From NCBI RefSeq assembly GCF_057098645.1, contig NZ_CM169472.1: a stretch of 64,000 nucleotides of DNA, one strand, 5' to 3'. Every line of letters starts with the position of its first letter. Position 1 is the first letter of the stretch. Made by a program: the position numbers and the translations under genes. This document shows positions 3,396 through 58,017 of this stretch, in pieces. The notes beneath the pieces were generated by a model. The model had not been told where the DNA came from. It saw only the letters and a program-made list of their open reading frames with translations, and searched no databases.

Positions 3396-4688
3396 ATGAA
3401 GCAGGCATTACGAGTAGCATTTGGTTTTCTCATACTGTGGGCATCAGTTCTGCATGCTGAAGTCCGCATTGTGATCGACAGCGGTGTAGATTCCGGTCGT
3501 CCTATTGGAGTTGTTCCTTTCCAGTGGGCGGGCCCTGGTGCGGCACCTGAAGATATTGGCGGCATCGTTGCTGCCGACTTGCGTAACAGCGGTAAATTTA
3601 ATCCGTTAGATCGCGCTCGTCTGCCACAGCAGCCGGGTAGTGCGCAGGAAGTACAACCAGCTGCATGGTCCGCGCTGGGCATTGACGCTGTAGTTGTCGG
3701 TCAGGTCACTCCGAATCCGGATGGTTCTTACAATGTTGCTTATCAACTTGTTGACACTGGCGGCGCACCGGGTACTGTACTTGCTCAGAACTCGTACAAA
3801 GTGAACAAGCAGTGGCTGCGTTATGCTGGTCATACCGCCAGTGATGAAGTGTTTGAAAAACTGACCGGTATTAAAGGTGCGTTCCGTACCCGTATTGCCT
3901 ACGTTGTTCAGACCAACGGCGGTCAGTTCCCGTATGAACTGCGCGTATCTGACTATGACGGTTACAACCAGTTTGTCGTTCACCGTTCACCACAGCCGCT
4001 GATGTCCCCGGCGTGGTCACCAGACGGTTCTAAACTGGCTTATGTGACCTTCGAAAGCGGTCGTTCCGCGCTGGTTATCCAAACGCTGGCAAACGGCGCT
4101 GTACGTCAGGTGGCTTCATTCCCGCGTCACAACGGTGCGCCTGCATTCTCGCCAGACGGCAGCAAACTGGCATTCGCCTTGTCGAAAACCGGTAGCCTGA
4201 ACCTGTACGTAATGGATTTGGCTTCTGGCCAGATCCGCCAGGTGACTGATGGTCGCAGTAACAATACCGAACCGACCTGGTTCCCGGACAGCCAGAACCT
4301 GGCATTTACTTCTGACCAGGCCGGTCGTCCACAGGTTTATAAAGTGAATATCAACGGCGGTGCGCCACAACGTATTACCTGGGAAGGTTCGCAGAACCAG
4401 GATGCGGATGTCAGCAGCGACGGTAAATTTATGGTAATGGTCAGCTCCAACGGTGGGCAGCAGCACATTGCCAAACAAGATCTGGCAACGGGAGGCGTAC
4501 AAGTTCTGTCGTCCACGTTCCTGGATGAAACGCCAAGTCTGGCACCTAACGGCACTATGGTAATCTACAGCTCTTCTCAGGGGATGGGATCCGTGCTGAA
4601 TTTGGTTTCTACAGATGGGCGTTTCAAAGCGCGTCTTCCGGCAACTGATGGACAGGTCAAATTCCCTGCCTGGTCGCCGTATCTGTGA
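3396..4688 (+). CDS. tolB: TolB periplasmic beta-propeller protein
   Basis: [21 protein letters not shown] signal peptide; 430 aa from the second ATG of the ORF. Confidence 0.95.
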
Positions 4689-38297: not shown

Positions 38298-38666
38298 TCA
38301 GGCGGCCTTGATAGTCATATCATCTGAATCAAATATTTCTGATGTATCGATATCGGTAATTCTTATTCCTTCACTACCATCCATTGGAGGCCATCCTTCC
38401 TGACCATTTCCATCATTCCAGTCGAACTCACACACAACACCATATGCATTTAAGTCGCTTGAAATTGCTATAAGCAGAGCATGTTGCGCCAGCATGATTA
38501 ATACAGCATTTAATACAGAGCCGTGTTTATTGAGTCGGTATTCAGAGTCTGACCAGAAATTATTAATCTGGTGAAGTTTTTCCTCTGTCATTACGTCATG
38601 GTCGATTTCAATTTCTATTGATGCTTTCCAGTCGTAATCAATGATGTATTTTTTGATGTTTGACAT
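38298..38666 (-). CDS. ea10: Lambda Ea10-like protein
   Basis: 122 aa, MSNIKKYIIDYDWKASIEIEIDHDVMTEEKLHQINNFWSDSEYRL... Confidence 0.8.
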   Translation of the reverse strand: MSNIKKYIIDYDWKASIEIEIDHDVMTEEKLHQINNFWSDSEYRLNKHGSVLNAVLIMLAQHALLIAISSDLNAYGVVCEFDWNDGNGQEGWPPMDGSEGIRITDIDTSEIFDSDDMTIKAA

Positions 38667-38685
38667 CTGTTCATATCCTCACAGA

Positions 38686-38712
38686 TAAAAAATCGCCCTC
38701 ATCTTGGAGGGC
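38686..38712 (-). terminator. Intrinsic terminator in the pL operon, upstream of ea10
   Basis: Minus strand gccctc-caagat-gagggc followed by gATTTTTT. Confidence 0.55.
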
Positions 38713-38854
38713 AAAGAAGATTTCCAATAATCAGAACAAGTCGGCTCCTGTTTAGTTACGAGCGACATTGCTCCGTGTATTCACTCGTTGGAATGAATAC
38801 ACAGCGCTGTGTTTATTCTGTTGTTTGCGTGAAAATGAAATCCGCCTGAGCGGG

Positions 38855-39736
38855 TTATGACCACTTTTTGTTTGGGTTTCGTTGGTGAGCGTGGTTTACA
38901 GGATTATTTGATATACCCCATAACTCTGACTCGCTTATCTCTACACGAGAGAAAGACCTGCTTTCTTTCAGTTCTTTTATAAACCTAGAACCTAAGATGA
39001 CATCTATTGTACCAGAAAGTTCTTGTAAAAGATCTTTGTTTTTTCTGAGGAAGAAAATATCTTCTTTATATTTAATTTTTACATAGAATTTATTCTGTAT
39101 TTTTAATATATCAAAGCATGGCAGATATCTATATCCCTCATATTTTCGCCACTGCTTAACAATTATAACATCTTTTTCATTTACTGCATTAATCAGCCCA
39201 AGACCAAGTACAGGTATGAATATTCTATTGTCTGCCGAAAGCGTACAATTATCACCACCAGGCAAATATGTATAAATCATGTCGGAATTTTTATACGCAT
39301 CAACGAATGCACGTAAGAAGCGTACATATTTTTGCCATCCGTTTATACCGAATTTACCATATAAGTATTCTTTATTTGTTAGAAGAAAACTATTTGTATC
39401 AGGATCCTTATCTACAGACCTGTCGATAAGATCTCCAACTACGTTTACAAAGTCAAAGACAGAGTTTAATAAGAACAATTGTCTTTCAGTAGGGCGAATT
39501 TCAATTATGTAGCCAGGATGAAGACGATATTGCATCTGCTTACGAAGTATACCGAACGCTTGGGTCCGAGCATCTGAAAGCAACTTCTTGTCGCCATCGC
39601 CGTGAGCATTGTTTCTAATAAAACTGATATAATTTGCTAATTTTTCAGCCTCTTTTTTGTGTTTTTTTCGCTCTGATGCTGAGTCTATTGGTTTTGGTAT
39701 GGACTTGTAATCAATCTTCTTCATTACGTACCTCAT
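38855..39736 (-). CDS. Uncharacterised 293-aa protein translationally coupled to N (lambda ral/sieB slot)
   Basis: Start ATG overlaps the N stop (ATGA), visibly AT-rich, lambda ral/sieB absent at this position; no motif I can assign. Confidence 0.6.
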   Translation of the reverse strand: MRYVMKKIDYKSIPKPIDSASERKKHKKEAEKLANYISFIRNNAHGDGDKKLLSDARTQAFGILRKQMQYRLHPGYIIEIRPTERQLFLLNSVFDFVNVVGDLIDRSVDKDPDTNSFLLTNKEYLYGKFGINGWQKYVRFLRAFVDAYKNSDMIYTYLPGGDNCTLSADNRIFIPVLGLGLINAVNEKDVIIVKQWRKYEGYRYLPCFDILKIQNKFYVKIKYKEDIFFLRKNKDLLQELSGTIDVILGSRFIKELKESRSFSRVEISESELWGISNNPVNHAHQRNPNKKWS

Positions 39737-40056
39737 GCCAATGGAATGGATTCCCCTTTAACCTTTTGTCTTCCTTGACAAGTTATACCGAACTCACCTG
39801 GCTTGCTATACCAAACTCGATGATTCTTGCGCTCAATACGTTGCAGGTTGCTTTCAATCTGTTCGTGGTATTCAGCCAGCACCGTAAGGTCTATCGGATT
39901 CAGTGCGCTTTCTACTCGTGATTTCGGTTTGCGATTCAGCGAGAGAATAGGGCGGTTAACTGGTTTAGCGCTTACCCCAACCAACAGGGGATTTGCTGCT
40001 TTCCATTGAGCCTGTTTCTCTGCGCGACGTTCGCGGCGGCGTGTTTGTGCATCCAT
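39733..40056 (-). CDS. N: Lambda antiterminator N
   Basis: 107 aa, MDAQTRRRERRAEKQAQWKAANPLLVGVSAKPVNRPILSLNRKPKSRVESALNPIDLTVLAEYH... Confidence 0.9.
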   Translation of the reverse strand: MDAQTRRRERRAEKQAQWKAANPLLVGVSAKPVNRPILSLNRKPKSRVESALNPIDLTVLAEYHEQIESNLQRIERKNHRVWYSKPGEFGITCQGRQKVKGESIPLA

Positions 40057-40213
40057 CTGGATTCTCCTGTCAGTTAGCTTTGGTTGTGTGTGGGAGTCGT
40101 AGTCCTGAACGAAAACACCCCGCAATGGCACATTGGCAGCTAATCCGGATTCGCACTTCCGGCCAATGCTTCGTTTCGTATCACACACACCAAAGCCTTC
40201 TGCTTTGAATGCT

Positions 40214-40228
40214 GCCCTTCTTCAGGGC
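40214..40228 (-). promoter_or_regulatory. nutL boxB hairpin
   Basis: Minus-strand GCCCTGAAGAAGGGC, the lambda boxB sequence, between pL and N. Confidence 0.65.
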
Positions 40229-40279
40229 TTAATTTTTAAGAGCCTCACCTTCAATGGTGGTCAGTGCGTCCTGCTGATG

Positions 40280-40348
40280 GCTTAAAATTACAAGGAAGAT
40301 TGTATGTTGTAAACAAGAAATATTGTAAAAAAGGGACGTGAAAAACAA
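40280..40348 (-). promoter_or_regulatory. 434-type left operators (OL1-OL3) with the pL promoter
   Basis: Three 14-bp ACAA-N6-TTGT sites: ACAAGGAAGATTGT, ACAAGAAATATTGT, ACAAACTCCATTGT. Confidence 0.7.
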
Positions 40349-40408
40349 ACTCCATTGTTTTTAAACGGAAAATAGTTTGTTTTTTTGTTATCGAGATTGA
40401 GGTGGGGA

Positions 40409-41454
<1,046 letters not shown>

Positions 41455-41473
41455 TTATTTACCCCCAATCTTC

Positions 41474-41532
41474 ACAAGAAAAACTGTATTTGACAAACAA
41501 GATACATTGTATGAAAATACAAGAAAGTTTGT
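41474..41532. promoter_or_regulatory. 434-type right operators OR3-OR2-OR1 with pRM/pR
   Basis: ACAAGAAAAACTGT (41474-41487), ACAAGATACATTGT (41497-41510), ACAAGAAAGTTTGT (41519-41532). Confidence 0.8.
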
Positions 41533-41545
41533 TGATGGAGGCGAT

Positions 41546-41575
41546 ATGCAAACTCTTTCTGAACGCCTCAAGAAG
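41546..41575 (+). pseudogene. cro: 434-type cro truncated after codon 10 by an IS insertion
   Basis: ATG CAA ACT CTT TCT GAA CGC CTC AAG AAG (MQTLSERLKK) runs directly into the IS terminal repeat TGAACCGCCCC. Confidence 0.75.
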
Positions 41576-41617
41576 TGAACCGCCCCGGGTTTCCTGGAGA
41601 GTATTTTATCTGTGAAC

Positions 41618-42508
41618 TCAGGCTGCCAGATCATTATTTCCGATGGAAGCATAATAAGCTTTTTCTGCTTCTGCCGGAGGAATATGGCCCAGCCTTTCCA
41701 GCAATCGTCGATTGTTATACCAGTCCACCCACGTGAGTGTGGCCAGTTCCACTTCTGCACGGTTTTTCCAGCTCTTACGGTGTATTACCTCCGCTTTGTA
41801 AAGACCATTGATGCTCTCCGCCATCGCGTTGTCATACGAGTCGCCAGTACTCCCTGTTGATGCCAGTAATCCGGCTTCCTTAAGCCGCTGCGTGTAGGCC
41901 AGCGATACATACTGAGAACCTTTATCACTGTGATGGATTGTGCCGGACGGCCGACGGGCCCACAACGCCTGCTCCAGTGCATCCAGCACGAATGTTGTTT
42001 CCATGGATGATGAGACCTGCCATCCCACGATGTATCCGGCGAACACATCAATGATGAACGCCACATAAACGAAGCCCCGCCATGTGCTGACGTAAGTAAA
42101 ATCAGCCACCCACAGCTGGTCAGGTCGTTCTGCCACGAACTGACGGTTTACGCGGTCGCCTGCGGCAACGGCTTTCCGGCTGATGGTCGTACGGACCTTT
42201 TTACCCCGGAGAACACCGGCAAGTCCCATAACTGCCATGAGACGTGCCACAGTGCATCTGGCCACTCTGATACCTTCCCGTAACAACTGACGCCAGACTT
42301 TACGCACACCGTATACCTGGTGATTTTCATCGTATACGCGCTGTATCTCTTTCTTCAGCCAGTCATCGTGCTGCGCACGGGCACTGCGTTTATCCGGATG
42401 ATGTCGCTGTTGCTGACAGTGGTAATACGTTGACGGGGCAATATGCAGTTCGCTGCATAGCGGTCCGACCCCGTACTGCTCACGCAGCTTATCCAGCAGT
42501 GGCATCAT
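41618..42508 (-). CDS. IS629-like transposase OrfB (DDE/integrase domain)
   Basis: 296-aa ORF with IS3-family DDE region ([10 protein letters not shown]...[11 protein letters not shown]). Confidence 0.85.
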
Positions 42509-42831
42509 TTTTTCCAGAGGCGGTCGAACTCCGCCTTCGCAAAATAAGCGGAAGCCTGGCGAAGGATATCGTTACTGCGGCGCAGTTCACGATTTTCACG
42601 CTCCAGCTCTTTCAGACGCTGACGTTCAGCGGTGGTGAGCCCGCCATCACCGCCCCCGGTATCCCGCTCATGCTGGCGAACCCAGACACGCAGAGTCTCC
42701 GGCGTACAGCCAATCTTTGGAGCAATGGAACAAATTGTCGCCCATTGTGAGTCATATTCATCCTGACTTTCCAGAACCATACGAATCGCCCGCTGACGGA
42801 CTTCGGGGGAAAAACGAGTATTTTTAGTCAT
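42505..42831 (-). CDS. IS629-like transposase OrfA (HTH)
   Basis: 108 aa, [50 protein letters not shown]... Confidence 0.85.
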
Positions 42832-42885
42832 CCTGTTTACCTCTTTCTCAGGGAGTTTAGTCTCCAGGATTTCCGGGGCGGTTCA

Positions 42886-43265
42886 ACCAGCCAGAAAACG
42901 ACCTTTCTGTGGTGAAACCTGATGCTGCATGGGGGACAGCAGAAGACCTGACCGCCGCAGAGTGGATGTTTGACATGGTGAAGACTATCGCGCCATCAGC
43001 CAGAAAACCGAATTTTGCAGGGTGGGCTAACGATATCCGCCTGATGCGTGAACGTGACGGACGTAACCACCGCGATATGTGTGTGCTGTTCCGCTGGGCC
43101 TGCCAGGACAACTTCTGGTCCGGTAATGTGCTGAGCCCGGCCAAACTCCGCGACAAGTGGACCCAGCTCGAAATCAACCGTAACAAGCAACAGGCAGTCG
43201 TGACAGCCAGCAAACCAAAACTCGACCTGACAAACACAGACTGGATTTACGGGGTGGATTTATGA
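42886..43265 (+). pseudogene. O: Lambda O replication initiator, C-terminal fragment only
   Basis: ...WGTAEDLTAAEWMFDMVKTIAPSARKPNFAGWANDIRLMRERDGRNHRDMCVLFRW...TDWIYGVDL; begins at the IS boundary. Confidence 0.8.
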
Positions 43266-43963
43266 AAAACATCGCCGCACAGATGGTTAACTTTGACCGT
43301 GAGCAGATGCGTCGGATCGCCAACAACATGCCGGAACAGTACGACGAAAAGCCTCAGGTACAGCAGGTAGCGCAGATCATCAACGGTGTGTTCAGCCAGT
43401 TACTGGCAACTTTCCCGGCGAGCCTGGCTAACCGTGACCAGAACGAACTGAACGAAATCCGCCGCCAGTGGGTTCTGGCTTTCCGGGAAAACGGGATCAC
43501 CACAATGGAACAGGTTAACGCAGGAATGCGCGTAGCCCGTCGGCAGAATCGACCATTTCTGCCATCACCCGGGCAGTTTGTTGCATGGTGCCGGGAAGAA
43601 GCATCCGTTATCGCCGGACTGCCAAACGTCAGCGAGCTGGTTGATATGGTTTACGAGTATTGCCGGAAGCGAGGCCTGTATCCGGATGCGGAGTCTTATC
43701 CGTGGAAATCAAACGCGCACTACTGGCTGGTTACCAACCTGTATCAGAACATGCGGGCCAATGCGCTTACTGATGCGGAATTACGGCGCAAGGCTGCCGA
43801 TGAACTGTCCTGTATGACCGCACGAATTAACCGTGGTGAGGCTATACCTGAACCAGTAAAACAACTTCCTGTCATGGGCGGTAGACCTCTAAATCGTGCA
43901 CAGGCTCTGGCGAAGATCGCAGAAATCAAAGCTAAGTTTGGGCTGAAAGGAGCAAGTGTATGA
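43262..43963 (+). CDS. P: Lambda P (DnaB helicase loader)
   Basis: 233 aa, MKNIAAQMVNFDREQMRRIANNMPEQYDEKPQVQQVAQIINGVFSQLLATFPASLANRDQNELNEIRRQW... Confidence 0.95.
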   Translation: MKNIAAQMVNFDREQMRRIANNMPEQYDEKPQVQQVAQIINGVFSQLLATFPASLANRDQNELNEIRRQWVLAFRENGITTMEQVNAGMRVARRQNRPFLPSPGQFVAWCREEASVIAGLPNVSELVDMVYEYCRKRGLYPDAESYPWKSNAHYWLVTNLYQNMRANALTDAELRRKAADELSCMTARINRGEAIPEPVKQLPVMGGRPLNRAQALAKIAEIKAKFGLKGASV

Positions 43964-44250
43964 CGGGCAAAGAGGCAATTATTCATTACCTGGGGACGCA
44001 TAATAGCTTCTGTGCGCCGGACGTTGCCGCGTTAACAGGCGCAACAGTAACCAGCATAAATCAGGCCGCGGCTAAAATGGCACGGGCAGGTCTTCTGGTT
44101 ATCGAAGGTAAGGTCTGGCGAACGGTGTATTACCGGTTCGCTACTAGGGAAGAACGGGAAGGAAAGATGAGCACGAACCTGATTTTTAAGGAGTGTCGCC
44201 AGAGTGCCGCGATGAAACGGGTATTGGCGGTATATGGAGTTAAAAGATGA
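43960..44250 (+). CDS. ren: Lambda Ren
   Basis: 96 aa, MTGKEAIIHYLGTHNSFCAPDVAALTGATVTSINQAAAKMARAGLLVIEGKVWRTVYYRF... Confidence 0.9.
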   Translation: MTGKEAIIHYLGTHNSFCAPDVAALTGATVTSINQAAAKMARAGLLVIEGKVWRTVYYRFATREEREGKMSTNLIFKECRQSAAMKRVLAVYGVKR

Positions 44251-44323
44251 CCATCTACATCACTGAGCTAATAACAGGCCTGCTGGTAATCGCAGGCCTT
44301 TTTATTTGGGGGAGAGGGAAGTC

Positions 44324-44764
44324 ATGAAAAAACTAACCTTTGAAATTCGATCTCCAGCACATCAGCAAAACGCTATTCACGCAGTACAGCAAATCCTTCC
44401 AGACCCAACCAAACCAATCGTAGTAACCATTCAGGAACGCAACCGCAGCTTAGACCAAAACAGGAAGCTATGGGCCTGCTTAGGTGACGTCTCTCGTCAG
44501 GTTGAATGGCATGGTCGCTGGCTGGATGCAGAAAGCTGGAAGTGTGTGTTTACCGCAGCATTAAAGCAGCAGGATGTTGTTCCTAACCTTGCCGGGAATG
44601 GCTTTGTGGTAATAGGCCAGCCAACCAGCAGGATGCGTGTAAGCGAATTTGCGGAGCTATTAGAGCTTATACAGGCATTCGGTACAGAGCGTGGCGTTAA
44701 GTGGTCAGACGAAGCGCGACTGGCTCTCGAATGGAAAGCGCGATGGGGAGATCGGGCTGCATGA
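44324..44764 (+). CDS. ninB: NinB (Orf recombination mediator)
   Basis: 146 aa from MKKLTFEIRSPAHQQNAIHAVQQILPDPTKPIVVTIQERNRSLDQNRKLW... Confidence 0.9.
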   Translation: MKKLTFEIRSPAHQQNAIHAVQQILPDPTKPIVVTIQERNRSLDQNRKLWACLGDVSRQVEWHGRWLDAESWKCVFTAALKQQDVVPNLAGNGFVVIGQPTSRMRVSEFAELLELIQAFGTERGVKWSDEARLALEWKARWGDRAA

Positions 44765-45288
44765 CTATCAAATCAAATACGCCAGCACACGACAAGGACT
44801 GCTGGCAAACGCCGCTTTGGCTTTTTGATGCACTGGATATTGAGTTTGGATTCTGGCTGGATTCGGCAGCGAGCGACAAAAACGCTCTGTGCGCTCACTG
44901 GCTAACTGAGGCTGACGACGCGCTAAATTCTGAGTGGATAAGCCACGGTGCAATCTGGAATAACCCACCGTACAGCAATATCAGGCCGTGGGTGGAAAAA
45001 GCCGCTGAGCAGTGCATACAACAGCGACAGACGGTAGTGATGCTTGTGCCAGAGGATATGTCTGTCGGATGGTTCAGCAAGGCTCTGGAGAGTGTTGACG
45101 AAGTTCGTATTATCACTGATGGACGGATTAATTTTATCGAACCATCGACAGGGCTGGAGAAGAAGGGAAACAGCAAAGGCTCCATGCTGCTGATTTGGCG
45201 ACCGTTCATTAGTCCTCGACGGATGTTTACTATCGTATCCAAAGCGGCATTGATGGCGATCGGGCAGGGCGTCAGGAGGGCGGCATGA
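44761..45288 (+). CDS. Phage N6-adenine DNA methyltransferase (orphan, NPPY motif)
   Basis: 175 aa with WQTPLWLFD and NPPY motifs; ATG overlaps the ninB stop; in the nin-region slot. Confidence 0.7.
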
Positions 45289-45467
45289 GGCGACAACGAC
45301 GAAGTTTCACCGACATCATCTGCGAAAACTGCAAATACCTTCCAACGAAACGCTCCAGAAATAAACGCAAGCCAATCCCAAAAGAATCTGACGTAAAAAC
45401 CTTCAACTACACGGCTCACCTGTGGGATATCCGGTGGCTAAGACATCGTGCGAGGAATACAAGGTGA
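45285..45467 (+). CDS. ninE: NinE-like protein
   Basis: 60 aa, [52 protein letters not shown]... Confidence 0.75.
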
Positions 45468-45634
45468 TTGACCCAAATCGAAGTTACGAACAAGAAAGCG
45501 TCGAGCGGGCTTTAACGTGCGCTAATTGCGGTCAGAAGCTGCATGTGCTGGAAGTTCACGTGTGTGAGCACTGCTGTGCAGAGCTGATGAGCGATTCGAA
45601 TAGCTCGATGCACGAGGAAGAAGATGATGGCTAA
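45464..45634 (+). CDS. ninF: NinF-like protein (GTG start)
   Basis: 56 aa, [42 protein letters not shown]..., cysteine-rich. Confidence 0.7.
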
Positions 45635-46238
45635 ACCAGCGCGAAGACGATGTAAAAACGATGAATGTCGGGAATGGTTTCACCCTGCATTCGCTAATCA
45701 GTGGTGGTGCTCTCCAGAGTGTGGAACCAAGATAGCACTCGAACGACGAAGTAAAGAACGCGAAAAAGCGGAAAAAGCAGCAGAGAAGAAACGACGACGA
45801 GAGGAGCAGAAACAGAAAGATAAACTTAAGATTCGAAAACTCGCCTTAAAGCCCCGCAGTTACTGGATTAAACAAGCCCAACAAGCCGTAAACGCCTTCA
45901 TCAGAGAAAGAGACCGCGACTTACCATGTATCTCGTGCGGAACGCTCACGTCTGCTCAGTGGGATGCCGGACATTACCGGACAACTGCTGCGGCACCTCA
46001 ACTCCGATTTGATGAACGCAATATTCACAAGCAATGCGTGGTGTGCAACCAGCACAAAAGCGGAAATCTCGTTCCGTATCGCGTCGAACTGATTAGCCGC
46101 ATCGGGCAGGAAGCAGTAGACGAAATCGAATCAAACCATAACCGCCATCGCTGGACTGTCGAAGAGTGCAAGGCGATCAAGGCAGAGTACCAACAGAAAC
46201 TCAAAGACCTGCGAAACAGCAGAAGTGAGGCTGCATGA
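45624..46238 (+). CDS. ninG: NinG (Rap Holliday-junction endonuclease)
   Basis: 204 aa, [56 protein letters not shown]... Confidence 0.9.
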
Positions 46239-46900
46239 ATATCTACGAAAGAATTGATGGCAGCAAATACCGAAATATTTGGGTAGCTGGCGACCTGCAC
46301 GGATGCTACACGAACCTGATGAACAAACTGGATACGATTGGATTCGACACCAAAAAAGACCTGCTCATCTCGGTTGGCGATTTGGTTGATCGCGGTACAG
46401 AGAACGTCGAATGTCTGGAATTAATCACATTCCCCTGGTTCAGAGCTGTGCGTGGAAACCATGAGCAAATGATGATTGATGGCTTATCAGAGCGTGGAAA
46501 CGTTAATCACTGGCTGCTTAATGGCGGTGGCTGGTTCTTTAATCTCGATTACGACAAAGAGACTCTGGCTAAAGTTCTTGCCCATAAAGCAGAAGAACTT
46601 CCGTTAATCATCGAACTGGTGAGCAAAGATAAAAAATATGTCATTTGCCACGCCGATTATCCTTGTGATAAATACGAGTTTGGAAAGCCAGTTGATCATC
46701 AGCAGGTAATCTGGAACCGCGAACGAATCAGCAACTCACAAGACGGGATCGTGAAAGAAATCAAAGGCGCGGACACGTTCATCTTTGGTCATACGCCAGC
46801 AGTGAAACCACTCAAATTTGCCAACCAGATGTATATCGATACTGGCGCAGTGTTCTGCGGAAACCTCACATTGATTCAGGTACAGGGAGAAGGCGCATGA
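46235..46900 (+). CDS. ninI: NinI Ser/Thr protein phosphatase (metallophosphatase)
   Basis: 221 aa, GDLHGC and GNHE metallophosphoesterase motifs. Confidence 0.9.
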
Positions 46901-46986
46901 GACTCGAAAGCGTAGCTAAATTTCATTCGCCAAAAAGCCCGATGATGAGCGACTCACTACTGGCCATAGTTTATTGGTTTTCGTAA
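46897..46986 (+). pseudogene. Q: Lambda Q antiterminator, N-terminal stub only
   Basis: [20 protein letters not shown] matches the start of lambda Q, then diverges and stops after 29 codons. Confidence 0.7.
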
Positions 46987-47111
46987 CTGAGTCATTTTAT
47001 TATTTTATTGCAACTTTTAATCTTTTATAGTGCGAAATAAATGGAGCTGGCATTCATTTCGCACTTTATGTTTTTGTTGGACTTATGTTATTTTGATTGA
47101 ATTCAATTCAG

Positions 47112-48071
47112 TTAAAAAAAGAAGGTGATTGCTCCATTTATAAATGAATAGTCATCCCCTGTCTTGAATTCTGATGTTACTTTATTAAATGCTAGTGTGA
47201 AGGCTACAGGTGCATACCCAATTGTTGCGCCAACTTGATATTCATCAACAGTTTTGTTTAGCGATACTGTTGTTTGTTTCGTCTGTATTGTTTTTCCTTC
47301 GAGAGTATAGTTGCGATTGACATCTCGTCTTTCCATACCTGCAAAAATCTTGTATTTGAATCCGCTTGTATCGGACATATGCATTAAACCACGGGGAGCC
47401 AGCAGACCAAAGCCATTATCCGAATTGAAGGTTTTATCATTACCAATGGCAATGGTTGCGCCATATGCTACATATTGAAATAAGTTTCCAGTAACAGCAG
47501 AAACTTCAGGGTATAATCCAACATTAGCACCTAAAATATCCATACTTGGTGTCATGGATAGCATCCCTTTTACAGTATAACCGTAGCGATTCTCTATTTG
47601 ATCATCCCATGCATGATATTTTTCTGCCCCAATAATCTCATGAGCTTTATTTTGTACTTTCTGACCGCCTGCGTCGGGGCCAACAACACCTATGTCAGTA
47701 CCTAATCGATAGCGAATCCAGTCATTCGCAAGGGAGTTCCATTCAATACCAGTGTGAGTGTATGCACTAAAAGCTCTGTCTCCAGTTACAGCTGTGTTGT
47801 GTCTTTTATTACTGCCTGATGGAGAGTAAATATCTTGCGCAATATGGAGAGATAATTGGCTCGAGTCTGAGATATCGTGGCTATATCCCAGAAATAAGCC
47901 TTGTGAGTAATCATCTCTGTTTTCATGTTTATTGCCATAAATATCATTAAGTATTGGTTGAAACTTCCCTGCATCATCATTTGCTAATGATAATGCAAGG
48001 CTGTTCGCGATAGCTGAACACGTGGTAAATGACAGAGCAATAAAGACGCCAGCGATGACACTTTTTTTCAT
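47112..48071 (-). CDS. Outer-membrane beta-barrel protein, LpxR (lipid A 3-prime-O-deacylase)-like by length and architecture
   Basis: 319 aa, signal peptide MKKSVIAGVFIALSFTTCSAIA, C-terminal aromatic residues (ITFFF); visibly AT-rich with a long AT-rich upstream region. Confidence 0.45.
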   Translation of the reverse strand: MKKSVIAGVFIALSFTTCSAIANSLALSLANDDAGKFQPILNDIYGNKHENRDDYSQGLFLGYSHDISDSSQLSLHIAQDIYSPSGSNKRHNTAVTGDRAFSAYTHTGIEWNSLANDWIRYRLGTDIGVVGPDAGGQKVQNKAHEIIGAEKYHAWDDQIENRYGYTVKGMLSMTPSMDILGANVGLYPEVSAVTGNLFQYVAYGATIAIGNDKTFNSDNGFGLLAPRGLMHMSDTSGFKYKIFAGMERRDVNRNYTLEGKTIQTKQTTVSLNKTVDEYQVGATIGYAPVAFTLAFNKVTSEFKTGDDYSFINGAITFFF

Positions 48072-48462
48072 ATGTTATTGTCTTCCTTTTTTTTGAATGG
48101 TGCGCGTATTTTACATACATGAGTTTGTAATACAAGGTGCGTAATCAATATGATGTTTTATAATTGCGTGAGACAATTGATTTATTCGTTTTTTATTGCG
48201 GTTTTATTATCTTTTAATGTAATGGTGTTTTTATTAAGTGTGTTTGCGTGGTGTTTTATGTTTTTTATAATTTTTTATTTTATTAAATTTAAATGCATTA
48301 GTAATGGCTATTCTATATAGCAATATAAGAACTGTTACAAAAAAAGGGGGGGCAATTACAGGTAGTTATGGATGATGAGTGAAACAGATATTGGAGAACC
48401 GGGGAATGAATGATGTCTGAGTCTTATATATCAGAACTCCTTCGCTGTCGCTGGGGGCTCCT

Positions 48463-49236
48463 GTGCTTATGTCGTTTCCCCGATTCGGTTTTGAACGATT
48501 ACCGAATGTTGAAGAATTATGCCAAAATATAGAAAGGATTTACTGCATGAATACCCAATATTTACAGTATGTTCGTGAGCAACTTATGGCAGCTACTGCT
48601 GACTTGAACGGAGCAACGAAAGGCCAGCTCGAAGCCTGGCAGGAGCATGCACAATTTGATACTGGTACATACAAACGAAAGAAGCCGCGCATTCTGGATG
48701 TGGTAACTGGCAAGATGATTACGCTGGATAATACGCCGACTTCCGGTAAGCAGTCGTACGCAAAAGGTTCATCCATTGCTTTGGTCAGCCCGGTTGAATT
48801 CTCAACCTCTTCATGGCGCCGCGCGGTTTTGTCTCTCGATGAACATCAGAAAGCATGGTTGCTTTGGTGTTACAGCGAAAGCGTTCGATGGGGGCATCAG
48901 GTCACCATAACGCAATGGGCATGGAGCGAGTTTAAAGATTTGTTAAGTAACAGAAAAATTGCAGGTAAGACACTGGATCGCCTGAAGACGTTAATCTGGC
49001 TGGCTGCACAGGATGTGAAGAGCGAACTTGCAGGGCGTGAGGCCTATGAATACCAGACACTGGCATCATTGGTGGGAGTGACAACAAAAAACTGGTCCGA
49101 GACATTTACTGAACGCTGGGTTGCAATGAAGCACATTTTTCTACAGCTTGATAGTGATGCTTTATTGCTTGTGACGAGAACACGTTCAAAACAAAAGGCA
49201 GCATTTTTACAGCAAAATATTGCAAAACTGGATTAA
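48463..49236 (+). CDS. Hypothetical protein, possibly a non-lambda late-gene regulator; start uncertain (alternative ATG at 48547)
   Basis: 257-aa ORF downstream of the Q stub, no zinc-finger cysteines; function not assignable from sequence. Confidence 0.35.
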   Translation: MLMSFPRFGFERLPNVEELCQNIERIYCMNTQYLQYVREQLMAATADLNGATKGQLEAWQEHAQFDTGTYKRKKPRILDVVTGKMITLDNTPTSGKQSYAKGSSIALVSPVEFSTSSWRRAVLSLDEHQKAWLLWCYSESVRWGHQVTITQWAWSEFKDLLSNRKIAGKTLDRLKTLIWLAAQDVKSELAGREAYEYQTLASLVGVTTKNWSETFTERWVAMKHIFLQLDSDALLLVTRTRSKQKAAFLQQNIAKLD

Positions 49237-49405
49237 AAGCCATATACTTCATGCAAATTTGGTATGTTGTAAAAAATGTATAAACCCGCTGCCGAGTGGG
49301 TTTTTTTTATGCCCTGAGTTGTACTTGTACGGTAAACATGCTGGCTGCTATGTAATAGAGTTTTTTTAGCCTGTAACCTCTTGACGGCATTGAATTGCTT
49401 TTGTT

Positions 49406-50164
49406 ATGAGTTGTAAGCCAATGTTATCATCTTGTATTGGGGTGGTTATGAAGGATGGTGCGCTGCTCAGGAGTTCTTCACTTTTTATTGCCTACATGGG
49501 ATGCCTTGGATGGGGGAGTGCTTATTTCTATGGATGGGGTACTTCTTTTTACTACGGCTTCCCATGGTGGATTGTAGGTGCAGGTGTTGATGATGTTGCC
49601 AGAAGTTTATTTTTTGCAGTTATCGTCATTGCTATATTTCTTATCGGTTGGGGTATTGGTGTTGTATTCTTTTTCGCAGTGAAAAGAAAACATTCTATGC
49701 AAGAGCTAAATGTATTTCGCCTTTATTTTGCTGTGGAATTATTGTTTGTGCCGGCAATTATTGAGTTTTCTATATTGAGACAGAAGATTCAGGTACCTCT
49801 TTTGCTACTGTCAGCAGCGATTGCGCTGGCGGTTACAATTTCGATAAGATCTTATGGGCGATTTTTATCGGTATCATGCTTCTATGATAAGCCATTTATA
49901 AAAAAACATTTTTTTGAGATTGTGATGATTGCTTTTGTGGCATATTTTTGGCTTTTTTCATTTCTGACAGGATATTACAAACCACAGTTTAAGAAAGAAT
50001 ATGAAATGATTAATTATAATGATGGTTGGTATTATGTTCTTGCTCGTTATGATAATTGTCTGGTTTTGTCTACTTCTTTCAATGCAGGTAGTAAAAGGTT
50101 TGTCATTTATCAATCAGCACAAGATAAGAATCTTCAGGTTGATATTGTAAGGACCAGAATTTAA
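49406..50164 (+). CDS. Hypothetical polytopic membrane protein (cargo gene in the Q-to-lysis region)
   Basis: 252-aa ORF, several hydrophobic helices, visibly AT-rich. Confidence 0.5.
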   Translation: MSCKPMLSSCIGVVMKDGALLRSSSLFIAYMGCLGWGSAYFYGWGTSFYYGFPWWIVGAGVDDVARSLFFAVIVIAIFLIGWGIGVVFFFAVKRKHSMQELNVFRLYFAVELLFVPAIIEFSILRQKIQVPLLLLSAAIALAVTISIRSYGRFLSVSCFYDKPFIKKHFFEIVMIAFVAYFWLFSFLTGYYKPQFKKEYEMINYNDGWYYVLARYDNCLVLSTSFNAGSKRFVIYQSAQDKNLQVDIVRTRI

Positions 50165-50297
50165 TTGGCTGCATAAATAATATTTTAAGTTGCAAGTTGG
50201 CTATTCGTAGGAATAGAACCTTAGGCATGCTGAATGCGTTTTCTGAACATTGTTTTATAAACTGTGTCTGCTTGCTGTTGTGATCCTGCTTTTAGTG

Positions 50298-50408
50298 ATG
50301 GTGATGATGGATTTCACCAGCAGGATAATGTTGGTACTGACTGATGGCGCTCTGGTCTGCGGCATTGTGGTATTGCTGTGGCCGATGATGAAAGAACAGA
50401 ATGAATAA
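50298..50408 (+). CDS. Putative 36-aa hydrophobic peptide
   Basis: MVMMDFTSRIMLVLTDGALVCGIVVLLWPMMKEQNE, one TM-like segment; below the ORF-track cutoff. Confidence 0.3.
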   Translation: MVMMDFTSRIMLVLTDGALVCGIVVLLWPMMKEQNE

Positions 50409-50593
50409 TTCTTGACTTTTTTGTTTACTGTTTATTAAAAAATCAACCGCATGGTGAATCCTCCTTGGAGGGGCTAAATGATCGAGTTTTAAGGGCACGT
50501 AGCGAGTTCTGTTTGATCATTGCAGAACTTAGCGGGAGGCGCCATGCGTACATCACTAGTGTTATTCCTTTTATCATTTTCCTTGTGAGTTCT

Positions 50594-52556: not shown

Positions 52557-52728
52557 TAAAAAAAGCCAGCGACTGACCTGAAAAAGAAGACGCTGGCTAA
52601 AAGGCCTTATATGTTTGTAGAGACTTATTTTTCACAGACAGCAATGATGCCTGTCAATATATTATCAATATGCGGATTGTTTCAGTTACAGATGCCTTAT
52701 TAAGGAAAAAAACAGCCAGCTGTAGTGG

Positions 52729-53756
<1,028 letters not shown>

Positions 53757-53760
<4 letters not shown>

Positions 53761-54197
53761 TGCCACTGCTGGATAAGCTGCGTGAGCAGTACGGGGTCGG
53801 ACCGCTATGCAGCGAACTGCATATTGCCCCGTCAACGTATTACCACTGTCAGCAACAGCGACATCATCCGGATAAACGCAGTGCCCGTGCGCAGCGCGAT
53901 GACTGGCTGAAGAAAGAGATACAGCGCGTATACGATGAAAATCACAAGGTATACGGTGTGCGTAAAGTCTGGCGTCAGTTGTTACGGGAAGGTATCAGAG
54001 TGGCCAGATGCACTGTGGCACGTCTCATGGCGGTTATGGGACTTGCCGGTGTTCTCCGGGGTAAAAAGGTCCGTACGACCATCAGCCGGAAAGCCGTTGC
54101 CGCAGGCGACCGCGTAAACCGTCAGTTCGTGGCAGAACGACCTGACCAGCTGTGGGTGGCTGATTTTACTTACGTCAGCACATGGCAGGGCTTCGTG
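53757..54197 (+). pseudogene. IS629-like OrfB, N-terminal part (copy 2), interrupted by IS21-family insertion
   Basis: Matches copy-1 OrfB up to ...[14 protein letters not shown], then reads into the foreign element. Confidence 0.8.
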
Positions 54198-54294
54198 CGT
54201 ATTCCGCTCTATTCGATCACGGATTGGCATCGAAGTCCGATCAGCGATTCGCATCCATTCGATCAACCGGGAACTTAACTTTTTCTACCGCTTT

Positions 54295-55050
54295 TTAACG
54301 CGTTTTTTCGCTGCTTTCCACTACCGGGGGATTTTTCCTCAGTGACTCTCCCTGAAGGACCACTCGGTGTGAGTTATGTACCAGTCTGTCCAGGATGGCA
54401 TCTGCTGTTGTTGGGTTCTCCATCAGACCATGCCATTTATCTACCGGGAACTGGCTTACCACTATCGTGCTGCTTTGTCCGTAACGATCCTCTATGAGCT
54501 CCAGAAGGTCATTACACTGGGCGTTACTTAACTGTTCCAGCCCCAGATCGTCCAGGATTAGAACCTGTATTTTTTGCAACTGTTTCAGATATTTCAGCCA
54601 GCTGCCATCAACACGTCCCTGAGCCAGTTGTTCCAGTAATCGCCCGGTTCTACAGTACCGGACGCTGTGTTTCTGTCGACATGCCTGTTCGCCCAGCGCA
54701 TTGGCTATCCAGCTCTTGCCACATCCTGTCGGACCGGTTATCAGCAGGTTTTTCCTGTGGGTTATGTAGTGGCCGTTCAGCAGTTCTCTCATCTGTTCAG
54801 CCCGCAGACCTCTTGAGGCCGGATAGCGCAGCCCTTCCGGTGTTGCCTGGTATTTCAGGCCGGCATTTTTTCTCAACCGTGCCACACGGCTGTTTTCCCT
54901 GCTCAGAAGCTCGTCATCAACCAGCAGCGTCAGCCTTTCCTCGAACGACAGTTCGTCGTAGGTCTGAGGCGTTTCCCGCTGCCGTATCAGGCTCCCGGCC
55001 ATCGCCGGGAGTTTCAGTTGGGTCAGTTTGTTTAACAGGTTATCACTCAT
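54295..55050 (-). CDS. istB: IstB-like ATPase helper of IS21-family transposition
   Basis: Walker A GPTGCGKS; start taken at MSDNLLNKLTQLKLP within the longer ORF. Confidence 0.8.
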   Translation of the reverse strand: MSDNLLNKLTQLKLPAMAGSLIRQRETPQTYDELSFEERLTLLVDDELLSRENSRVARLRKNAGLKYQATPEGLRYPASRGLRAEQMRELLNGHYITHRKNLLITGPTGCGKSWIANALGEQACRQKHSVRYCRTGRLLEQLAQGRVDGSWLKYLKQLQKIQVLILDDLGLEQLSNAQCNDLLELIEDRYGQSSTIVVSQFPVDKWHGLMENPTTADAILDRLVHNSHRVVLQGESLRKNPPVVESSEKTR

Positions 55051-55066
55051 ACTGTTGTTCCTTCTG

Positions 55067-56602
55067 TCAGTGGTAGTAGCCCGGACCACGCAGGTTTTCA
55101 TGCTCTGAAGCATATGCCGGATGTTGTTCGCCCTGGCGGGATAATGGAAGCTCCAGGTTCTCCCGATGGTGACGCAGCAGATTGTCGATAAAGCGTCTGT
55201 CAGGGGCGTTATAGTGCAGGGCAACGTAACAGGCCTTTTCCAGCCGTTCCGGGCCGTATTTTTTCTGAAGTGCCAGCAGCCCCAGAACTGCACGATAAGC
55301 CAGTTCCGGATGGGGTTTTGCCTTCAGCATGGATTCAACCACCCGGCCTGTGGACGGGCCCGTACGTTTTCCCTGCTCGATCAGGCGTTCCGGTGTCCAT
55401 GTCCCGTGCTGCCGGTGGCGCTCTGGCATGTGAAGCGGATTGGTTGTGTGTTTATATTCATGTGTGCTGCGCGGATGTTGCGCCACACACTGCCCCTTGT
55501 GCCAGAGCTGTACCACCGACTGCCCCGCCTTCAGTGACAGACGCTGACCGACCAGTTCGTGTGGAACGGAGTACCAGTGACGGGCATATTCAACGTGGTA
55601 GTCAGGGCCAACCTTCACAGCTTTGTATTCCGTGTATTCATAAGGTGCCAGAGGCAGCGGAGAGAGTGCTGGCGCATCCAGTATGCGGAAGCGTTCTGCA
55701 CGGGTTTGATTGCCGTACCCCTTCATTGGCCGGTTATTCATGTCTGTCAGTAACTCCCTAAGGCGCGCATTCAGCGCCCTGAGCGTGTGGAAGGTTTCAT
55801 TACGGATGCGGGCAAGAAGCCATCGTTCAACGATGAGGACGCCGTTTTCTGCTTTTGGTTTATCTTTAGGTTTGCGTGGTCGGGCCGGGATGATAACCGT
55901 GCCATAGTGCTCAGCCAGTGCCTGATAACTGTCGTTGATGACAGGCTCATATCGATCGGCCTTTTTCACTGCGCTTCTGAGGTTATCGGGGATGAGCAGC
56001 TTCGGTACGCCGCCCAGGAAGGTCAGGCAACGGCTGTGGGCATTTAACCATGACATCATGTCCTGACCTTCGCACGCTTCAACGTAGGTATAGTTGGACG
56101 CCCCCATTACGGCCACGAAGATTGCCACGCGGCGTATCTCACCGGTGTCCGGATTAATAACAGGAACCGTAGGACCACAGAAGTCGATAAAAAGCTTTTC
56201 GCCGGCACGATGCTCCTGGCGCATGGAGAGACGTCGCGTTTTTTTCCACTCCCGGTAGCAACGGCAGAAGTGCGAGTATCCCATCGCTTTGTTACCCGCC
56301 TGTGCCTTGTATTCCATCCACAACAGTTGCCGCGTCACACCTGGTTTTCTCATTTCCGTATCGAAGTACAACATGTCAGGCATTACAAGCTCTGATGCAA
56401 AGGTGTCTTTGGGCGGAAAAATGAGTTTCTCCAGCGTGTCATGGGATATATCAGCAGGTAATGGCCATGACAGAGAAGAGGCTTTGAAGCGGGCAAGAAC
56501 CTCAAAAACGGTTGAGGCGCTGATGTGTAACGTCAGTCCGATACAACGGTTAGTCAGCTTCTTGTCGAACTTGAGCTGAAGGATCTTAAAACAGGTTTCC
56601 AT
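55067..56602 (-). CDS. istA: IstA-like IS21-family transposase; start uncertain
   Basis: Long ORF with N-terminal HTH and DDE-type core, ends 16 nt upstream of istB. Confidence 0.7.
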   Translation of the reverse strand: METCFKILQLKFDKKLTNRCIGLTLHISASTVFEVLARFKASSLSWPLPADISHDTLEKLIFPPKDTFASELVMPDMLYFDTEMRKPGVTRQLLWMEYKAQAGNKAMGYSHFCRCYREWKKTRRLSMRQEHRAGEKLFIDFCGPTVPVINPDTGEIRRVAIFVAVMGASNYTYVEACEGQDMMSWLNAHSRCLTFLGGVPKLLIPDNLRSAVKKADRYEPVINDSYQALAEHYGTVIIPARPRKPKDKPKAENGVLIVERWLLARIRNETFHTLRALNARLRELLTDMNNRPMKGYGNQTRAERFRILDAPALSPLPLAPYEYTEYKAVKVGPDYHVEYARHWYSVPHELVGQRLSLKAGQSVVQLWHKGQCVAQHPRSTHEYKHTTNPLHMPERHRQHGTWTPERLIEQGKRTGPSTGRVVESMLKAKPHPELAYRAVLGLLALQKKYGPERLEKACYVALHYNAPDRRFIDNLLRHHRENLELPLSRQGEQHPAYASEHENLRGPGYYH

Positions 56603-56742
56603 AGTGCTCCTGGATTTTCTCTTTCTGGACATTGACGTCTCCACTGGTTTAAACACGGCAATGGAGACTGTGGTGAAAAGAGTTAATTCCCGGAGTGACT
56701 GGCAGGATGCCAATCAATGATCGGAAGCATGCCAAATCGTGA

Positions 56743-57291
<549 letters not shown>

Positions 57292-57303
57292 GTTCACAGA
57301 TAA

Positions 57304-58017
<714 letters not shown>

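Follow-up and report, generated by a model that had tools for sequence, protein, structure and literature searches.

The window analysed here is a stretch of 64,000 nucleotides from contig NZ_CM169472.1 of NCBI RefSeq assembly GCF_057098645.1, and the subject is a dam-like gene in the nin region of a lambdoid prophage that it contains. An earlier note, made by a model from the letters of the sequence, had described an open reading frame (ORF) of 175 amino acids at 44761-45288 on the plus strand, with an NPPY catalytic motif. Both were recovered, and the ORF is intact. The gene and its immediate surroundings are as follows.

44761-45288, plus strand: dam-like coding sequence (dam), 175 amino acids plus stop codon, phage N-6-adenine-methyltransferase.
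44324-44764, plus strand: ninB, orf recombination mediator (PF05772, E 1e-53), upstream of dam.
45285-45467, plus strand: ninE (PF05322, E 1.3e-42), downstream of dam.
44745-44748, plus strand: ribosome-binding site of dam, within the 3' end of ninB; sequence GGGGAGATCGGGCTGCATG.

The overlap of the dam start codon with the ninB stop codon, also claimed earlier, is present: the ATG (44761-44763) and the TGA (44762-44764) are joined as ATGA. At the other end, the dam TGA (45286-45288) shares bases with the ninE ATG (45285-45287). ATGA stop/start junctions are a general feature of the nin region (PMC8022706). The order of genes is P, ren, NinB, dam, NinE, NinF, NinG and a NinI-like phosphatase. 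The ribosome-binding site is annotated in the identical sequence of phage 434 (L001, 5985-5988; window offset 38760). A GATC site (44750-44753) lies within GGGGAGATCGGGCTGCATG, between the Shine-Dalgarno-like GGGGAG and the dam ATG.

The assignment to the N6-adenine methyltransferases is supported by two models of the phage 'Dam' family. The match to PF05869 (Dam) covers amino acids 4-169 of 175 with an E-value of 1.5e-64 and 217.2 bits, against a cutoff of 28.1, and is the sole Pfam match of the protein. The TIGR01712 equivalog 'phage N-6-adenine-methyltransferase' matches amino acids 2-168 with 262.8 bits, against a cutoff of 97.05. Judging from these scores, the family match is far beyond chance. 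The protein also matches phrog_111, 'DNA methyltransferase'. At the DNA level the gene is 100% identical to the 'DNA adenine methyltransferase' CPT_434_59 in both genome records of phage 434.

As for its distribution, the suggestion that such genes are common in this slot of the nin region was amply confirmed. Copies with at least 95% DNA identity were found in 244 phage records, including mEp043, mEp213, HK140, SfI, Sf101 and many Stx1 and Stx2 converting phages. At the same identity the gene is carried by 1565 of 5426 complete E. coli genomes (29%), with up to five copies in each. Among the E. coli copies listed, all are named 'phage N-6-adenine-methyltransferase'; among the copies listed, every one is flanked by ninB and most by ninE. 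Homologs of the protein occur in 2132 phage records, and the PF05869 family comprises 8716 representatives of 50%-identity clusters (E <= 1e-3). Some of these representatives (P0140, P0143, P0144, P0149, P0155 and P0241) are 500-690 amino acids long and have the PF05869 domain at the C-terminus, for example at residues 321-488 of 497 or 487-654 of 663. Apparently, the small Dam core has in other lineages been joined to a large uncharacterised N-terminal part, or these may be gene-call fusions.

The genes of phage 434, HK97, mEp043, mEp213, SfI, Phi24B, Stx1/Stx2 phages and VT2-Sakai share with the present gene the length, the family models and the ninB-ninE slot with its codon overlaps. Compared to the genes of the phage 434 and VT2-Sakai type, the gene itself shows no difference; only the carrier differs, being here a 434-type prophage made defective by an IS3-family insertion sequence (IS). 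The gene is already known as an ordinary accessory gene of lambdoid phages, and the NCBI annotation names it correctly.

Conservation was examined in an alignment of 54 diverse family members with 31-79% identity to the dam protein. Six residues, T17, D34, N68, P70, R122 and F125, are invariant in the 54 members, and six others, P18, A37, P69, Y71, N137 and S141, are conserved in at least 90% of them. All twelve are present here. The earlier note had named the loss of catalytic residues on alignment as a result that would speak against it; none is lost, and the NPPY motif and the other family-invariant residues are retained. The functional elements can be placed as follows, with secondary structure taken from an AlphaFold2 model.

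44809-44814, plus strand: T17-P18, motif X-like, before the N-terminal helix of residues 19-29 (conservation and model).
44860-44871, plus strand: D34-S-A-A37, putative equivalent of S-adenosylmethionine (AdoMet)-binding motif I, at the end of strand 1 (residues 31-34 in the model).
44962-44973, plus strand: NPPY, catalytic motif IV, amino acids 68-71, all four invariant in comparison with the Dam of phage Tls and the homolog of a 936-group lactococcal phage.
45121-45183, plus strand: hairpin or loop G121-R-x-x-F125...G136-N-x-K-x-S141 (GRxxF...GNxKGS), between modelled strands 114-119 and 141-146.

By analogy with M.TaqI-type enzymes, D34-S-A-A37 would take part in AdoMet binding. In group-2 enzymes (M.EcoKI/M.TaqI-type), a residue of the N-terminal helix positions the catalytic Asn (PMC4738411), and a motif X-like role is suggested for T17-P18. 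Distant phage homologs all retain four residues of the hairpin, R122, F125, N137 and S141. Given that a separate target-recognition domain is missing, the hairpin of residues 121-141 is the candidate DNA-recognition element.

The AlphaFold2 model, built on the same 54-sequence alignment, has a pLDDT (predicted local distance difference test) of 95.8 and a pTM (predicted template modelling score) of 0.91. It consists of a compact alpha/beta core with an N-terminal helix (amino acids 19-29), a C-terminal helix (amino acids 161-174) and no second domain, and the predicted fold is that of class I (Rossmann-like) AdoMet-dependent methyltransferases. Searches for solved relatives by phmmer with the protein and by hmmsearch with the 54-member profile gave chance matches only (SdiA, and Med31 through 'WCNPPYS'), and PF05869 is a family without a solved structure detectable by sequence. 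By structural comparison, the closest solved fold was PCIF1/CAPAM, the writer of N6,2'-O-dimethyladenosine (m6Am) in the mRNA cap, with a score of 11.1. It was followed by M.BseCI (9.6), MmeI (9.4), M.TaqI (9.2), CamA (9.1), the HsdM subunits of type I systems (about 8.8) and E. coli Dam (8.6, over 107 core residues only). Foldseek agreed.

The modelled fold is best described as a minimal Rossmann core of the M.TaqI/M.EcoKI type (group 2, gamma-like) without a separate target-recognition domain. Group 2 of Iyer et al. also contains PCIF1 (PMC4738411). PCIF1 and the gamma-class enzymes are 12-16% identical to the dam protein and carry large extra domains (target-recognition, helical, WW), whereas a bare core is found here; PCIF1, moreover, acts on capped mRNA. 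The alpha-class enzymes E. coli Dam, T4 Dam and DpnM (PF02086) share with the present protein the reported G-m6A-TC product (m6A, N6-methyladenine), the cofactor, the Rossmann core and an (N/D)PPY motif. Neither of the alpha-class features sought in the dam protein, membership in PF02086 and a helical target-recognition domain inserted in the core, was found. Since the predicted fold lies outside the alpha-class of host Dam, a GATC specificity shared with host Dam would be convergent. The protein likewise lacks the marks of the MT-A70 family, DPPW and PF05063, its motif being NPPY and its sole Pfam match PF05869, and METTL3/14 chains were poor Foldseek matches (probability 0.09-0.13).

The target of the enzyme can be approached through its relatives. 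The dam protein is identical at 173 of 175 amino acids (99%) to orf32 of VT2-Sakai (NP_050531). No methyltransferase other than orf32 is annotated in the 60.9-kb genome of VT2-Sakai. Because it is the sole annotated methyltransferase, orf32 is taken to be M.EcoVT2Dam, which was cloned from VT2-Sakai. M.EcoVT2Dam is cited as 'known to target 5'-GATC-3'' (PMC6602927). The possibility that orf4 of VT2-Sakai is M.EcoVT2Dam instead was considered and rejected, as orf4 is a DUF551 protein and not MT-A70.

More distant members of the family point to the same target. The lactococcal M.Phi93DAM, described with its NPPY motif only, was shown by single-molecule real-time (SMRT) sequencing to produce G(m6A)TC, and it makes DNA resistant to DpnII and sensitive to DpnI (PMC4190342). 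Its counterpart in a 936-group phage, in the same slot between terS and terL, is a PF05869 protein (E 6e-34) and has every invariant residue in common with the dam protein. The Dam of phage Tls (Drexlerviridae) is also a PF05869 member. The Tls and 936-group proteins have the same invariant TP, LDxA, NPPY, GRxxF and GNxKxS elements, but are just 33-36% identical to the dam protein. The slot of the Tls gene is a replication/recombination module, whereas the 936-type gene lies between terS and terL, and Tls Dam shows about 55 additional amino acids at the N-terminus as well as an internal insertion. Tls stands here for the T1-like phages, whose Dam proteins, like that of phage HP1, are distant PF05869 members. 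The T1 and HP1 enzymes are GATC-specific according to the older literature. Taken from sequence relationships, the enzyme is predicted to methylate the N6 of adenine in GATC of duplex DNA.

This assignment bears on how the gene can be studied. The earlier note had proposed to compare the methylome of the lysogen with that of a cured strain, and to count the lack of a new methylated motif against the gene. Since host Dam already methylates GATC, no new motif is to be expected from such a comparison. Even a functional enzyme would leave the methylome of the lysogen uninformative, because host Dam saturates GATC and the gene is repressed; in the present prophage it is also cut off from nutR. With GATC assigned as the target, the appearance of a new methylated motif cannot detect this gene.

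Comparison with lambda by blastn agreed with the proposal that the gene stands in place of ninC and ninD. The similarity to lambda reaches the ninB stop codon (window 44764 = lambda 41084) and restarts at window 45292, 7 nt into lambda ninE. A dam cassette of 527 bp thus stands in for 1012 bp of lambda that carry ninC and ninD. Also compared with lambda, ninH is absent, and ninG (45624-46238) abuts a ninI-type serine/threonine phosphatase gene (46235-46900). That no partner restriction gene is visible nearby holds as well, the neighbours being ren, ninB, ninE, ninF, ninG and ninI, and no restriction endonuclease is annotated in the 99.8-99.9% identical stretch of phage 434 or in a related E. 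coli prophage. The gene is an orphan (solitary) methyltransferase.

The expression of the gene depends on elements further upstream.

41490-41518, plus strand: pR promoter, match TTGACA-17-GAAAAT; the -35 and -10 of 434 pR are annotated at equivalent positions.
41576-42885, minus strand (transposase): IS3-family element of 1310 bp, delimited by blastn against 434, transposase ORFs and terminal inverted repeats.
44276-44309, plus strand: intrinsic terminator between ren and ninB, at the position of lambda tR2; stem-loop AGGCCTGC...GCAGGCCT, then TTTTATTT.

The pR promoter would drive a rightward early operon that contains dam. A terminator is annotated at the corresponding place in phage 434, upstream of the ninB-dam block. 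In phage 434 dam belongs to the pR operon and is preceded by the ren-ninB terminator, and on this ground it is expected to be delayed-early, N-dependent and repressed in the lysogen.

The prophage extends from about 32.6 kb to the end of the window and adjoins ybhC in the lambda attachment region. Positions 38601-50500 are 99.8-99.9% identical to phage 434 by blastn, apart from one replacement. This is the IS3-family element, which takes the place of 1133 bp of immunity and replication sequence of the 434 type, between pR and dam: window 38601-41575 corresponds to 1-2974 of the 434 locus, and window 42886 onward to 4108 onward. According to the 434 annotation, the sequence lost comprises the 3' part of cro, nutR, cII, oop, the first 500 bp of O and the ori iterons; cI, pR and pRM are preserved. 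At its ends the element carries good terminal inverted repeats, and no target-site duplication is seen (aag | IS | acc; flanks 41556-42910), as is expected after an IS-associated deletion. Therefore, with ori and nutR lost, the prophage is defective for replication and for rightward antitermination. Since nutR is deleted, dam is probably unexpressed here even after induction. Judging from this architecture, the gene, though intact, is most likely carried silently in a defective prophage.

Several other features of the prophage and its surroundings can be recorded. At window 42929, inside the truncated remnant of O, 17 bp of the 434 gene O (434 locus 4152-4168) are missing. Compared with a related O103:H2 prophage, 5.2 kb of nested insertion sequences are inserted at 52720-57936, just after a SASA-family esterase gene and upstream of the lysis genes. 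The outer element belongs to the IS3 family, with ORFs at 52729-53472 and 57552-57899. It encloses two fragments (53376-54196 and 56835-57333) of a relative of the IS at 41576-42885. The fragments are separated by a further element, whose two proteins, of 548 and 332 amino acids (55067-56713 and 54295-55293, minus strand), were taken from their sequences to be IS21-type istA and istB. Between the ninI phosphatase gene and Q, a gene on the minus strand (47112-48071) matches PF09982 (E 6.8e-40) and codes for an outer-membrane lipid A deacylase of the LpxR family. Phage 434 has, at the matching position, an annotated fragment resembling the N-terminal part of lambda Q, which immediately precedes the LpxR gene. 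This deacylase gene is a moron that could alter the lipid A of the host. Outside the prophage, window 1-32500 is E. coli chromosome, of which 20060-32500 matches acrZ, modABC, ybhA, pgl and ybhD-ybhC of an O103:H2 genome with 98-99% identity. Immediately beyond ybhC, in the neighbourhood of lambda attB, lies the prophage integrase.

The best explanation, to which we give a probability of about 0.86, is that the gene encodes the lambdoid 'Dam' of PF05869/TIGR01712, a single-domain AdoMet-dependent DNA N6-adenine methyltransferase that is silent in this prophage. In the proposed mechanism, AdoMet would be held by the D34 loop (D34, A37 and the end of strand 1). The adenine of GATC would be flipped into the NPPY pocket after strand 4 and receive the methyl group of AdoMet. 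The sequence may be read through the hairpin with R122, F125, N137, K139 and S141, which would substitute for a target-recognition domain. In an intact phage the gene would be translationally coupled to ninB and ninE in the N-antiterminated, delayed-early pR operon. This position suggests that the enzyme would be produced in the course of lytic replication, at a time when host Dam is limiting and lambdoid DNA stays under-methylated; virion DNA of lambda and P22 is under-methylated by Dam (PMC8022706). The enzyme may thereby top up the GATC methylation of rapidly replicating progeny DNA. Full methylation would guard the progeny from m6A-sensitive GATC restriction of the DpnII/MboI type in the next host, and would probably also block MutH incision during Red/Orf/Rap recombination. 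The idea of protection from MutH is prompted by the translational coupling of dam to ninB.

Several points weigh against this explanation. The biological role is one that we infer, and E. coli hosts are Dam+, so that it is not evident what advantage another GATC methylase would bring. The grounds for GATC specificity are the 99% identity to VT2-Sakai orf32 together with secondary citations, and M.EcoVT2Dam was equated with orf32 by elimination only. Over-expression of Dam-like enzymes in vivo can give off-target methylation (PMC10810198). As to silence, read-through from the IS or weak internal promoters could possibly express dam here. The frequency of the target was also counted. The non-IS part of the prophage holds 72 GATC sites, against 96-113 expected, and by a Markov estimate the chromosome holds 121, against 158 expected. 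GATC is moderately under-represented in both, and no phage-specific signal is seen.

Two other groups of phage-borne enzymes were tried as identities of the present gene or as relatives, and were rejected. The 16S rRNA methyltransferase of the Koudelka laboratory is an MT-A70 protein with DPPW, phiPA8 gp5, and needs the PNB-2 partner (PMC10810198). This enzyme, M.EcoPA8orf6770P/M.EcoGV of Stx phages, is also annotated in Shiga toxin-producing E. coli as a prophage-borne 'Dam homolog' for GATC, but it is not a nin-region gene and prefers 16S rRNA. The dam of the nin region should be kept apart from it. Hia5, Hin1523 and Nma1821 carry DPPY and FxGxG, with the catalytic Asp at residue 191-194 (PMC3299994). 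Their closest structural homologs are of the alpha-class (E. coli Dam, DpnM and T4 Dam), so they represent a different family.

Other explanations differ from the lambdoid 'Dam' of lytic replication in purpose, substrate or specificity. The gene might be mainly regulatory, supplementing host Dam, altering GATC methylation at phage or host promoters and tuning the stability of lysogeny or the frequency of induction. The authors of work on Phi24B suggest that dam supplements host Dam, required for stable 933W lysogeny, and they detected the dam product of that phage, which is 100% identical to NP_050531 (VT2-Sakai orf32), with antisera raised against lysogen cultures (PMC3342100). The GATC site inside the ribosome-binding region of dam (44750) would also suit a regulatory function. 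However, dam lies downstream of pR and tR2 in a repressed early operon, and its mRNA level in Phi24B changed significantly on induction (PMC3342100), so that detection in lysogen cultures may reflect spontaneously induced cells. Host Dam, moreover, already methylates nearly all chromosomal GATC sites, and in the present prophage the promoter-proximal region including nutR is deleted. A mainly regulatory role is accordingly judged unlikely.

Very improbable, in our estimate, is an enzyme acting mainly on RNA or another substrate that is not duplex DNA, with the 'DNA Dam' label as an annotation artefact. The resemblance of the fold to PCIF1 speaks for it, as does the precedent of Stx phage PA8, whose MT-A70 'DNA adenine methyltransferase' prefers 16S rRNA (PMC10810198). 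The PA8 enzyme, however, depends on a partner subunit and is a member of another family, MT-A70 with DPPW. In PF05869 itself, M.EcoVT2Dam and M.Phi93DAM are documented GATC DNA methylases, and the next-best structural neighbours after PCIF1 (BseCI, MmeI, TaqI, CamA and HsdM) are all DNA adenine methyltransferases. Equally slight is the chance of a relaxed or different specificity, nearly non-specific like that of Hia5 or M.EcoGII, which would give broad protection from restriction. Small non-specific adenine methyltransferases borne by phages do exist (PMC3299994; also the enzyme of Serratia prophage OS31), and a protein without a target-recognition domain could suggest loose recognition. Yet Hia5, Hin1523 and Nma1821 are larger DPPY/FxGxG enzymes of a different family, an enzyme 99% identical to one assigned to GATC is unlikely to differ from it in specificity, and even a member with 33-36% identity is GATC-specific.

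In this family GATC would have to be read by a core of 175 amino acids without a separate recognition domain. There is a small chance that the enzyme reads GATC by an undescribed mode, as a dimer or through the R122-S141 hairpin, or that it has a second, physiologically relevant substrate. Such a substrate might be the single-stranded DNA intermediates that the co-translated NinB/Orf makes in recombination, or, as for PCIF1, RNA. If an undescribed mode of recognition or a second substrate were true, it would apply equally to the genes of phage 434, HK97 and the Stx phages.

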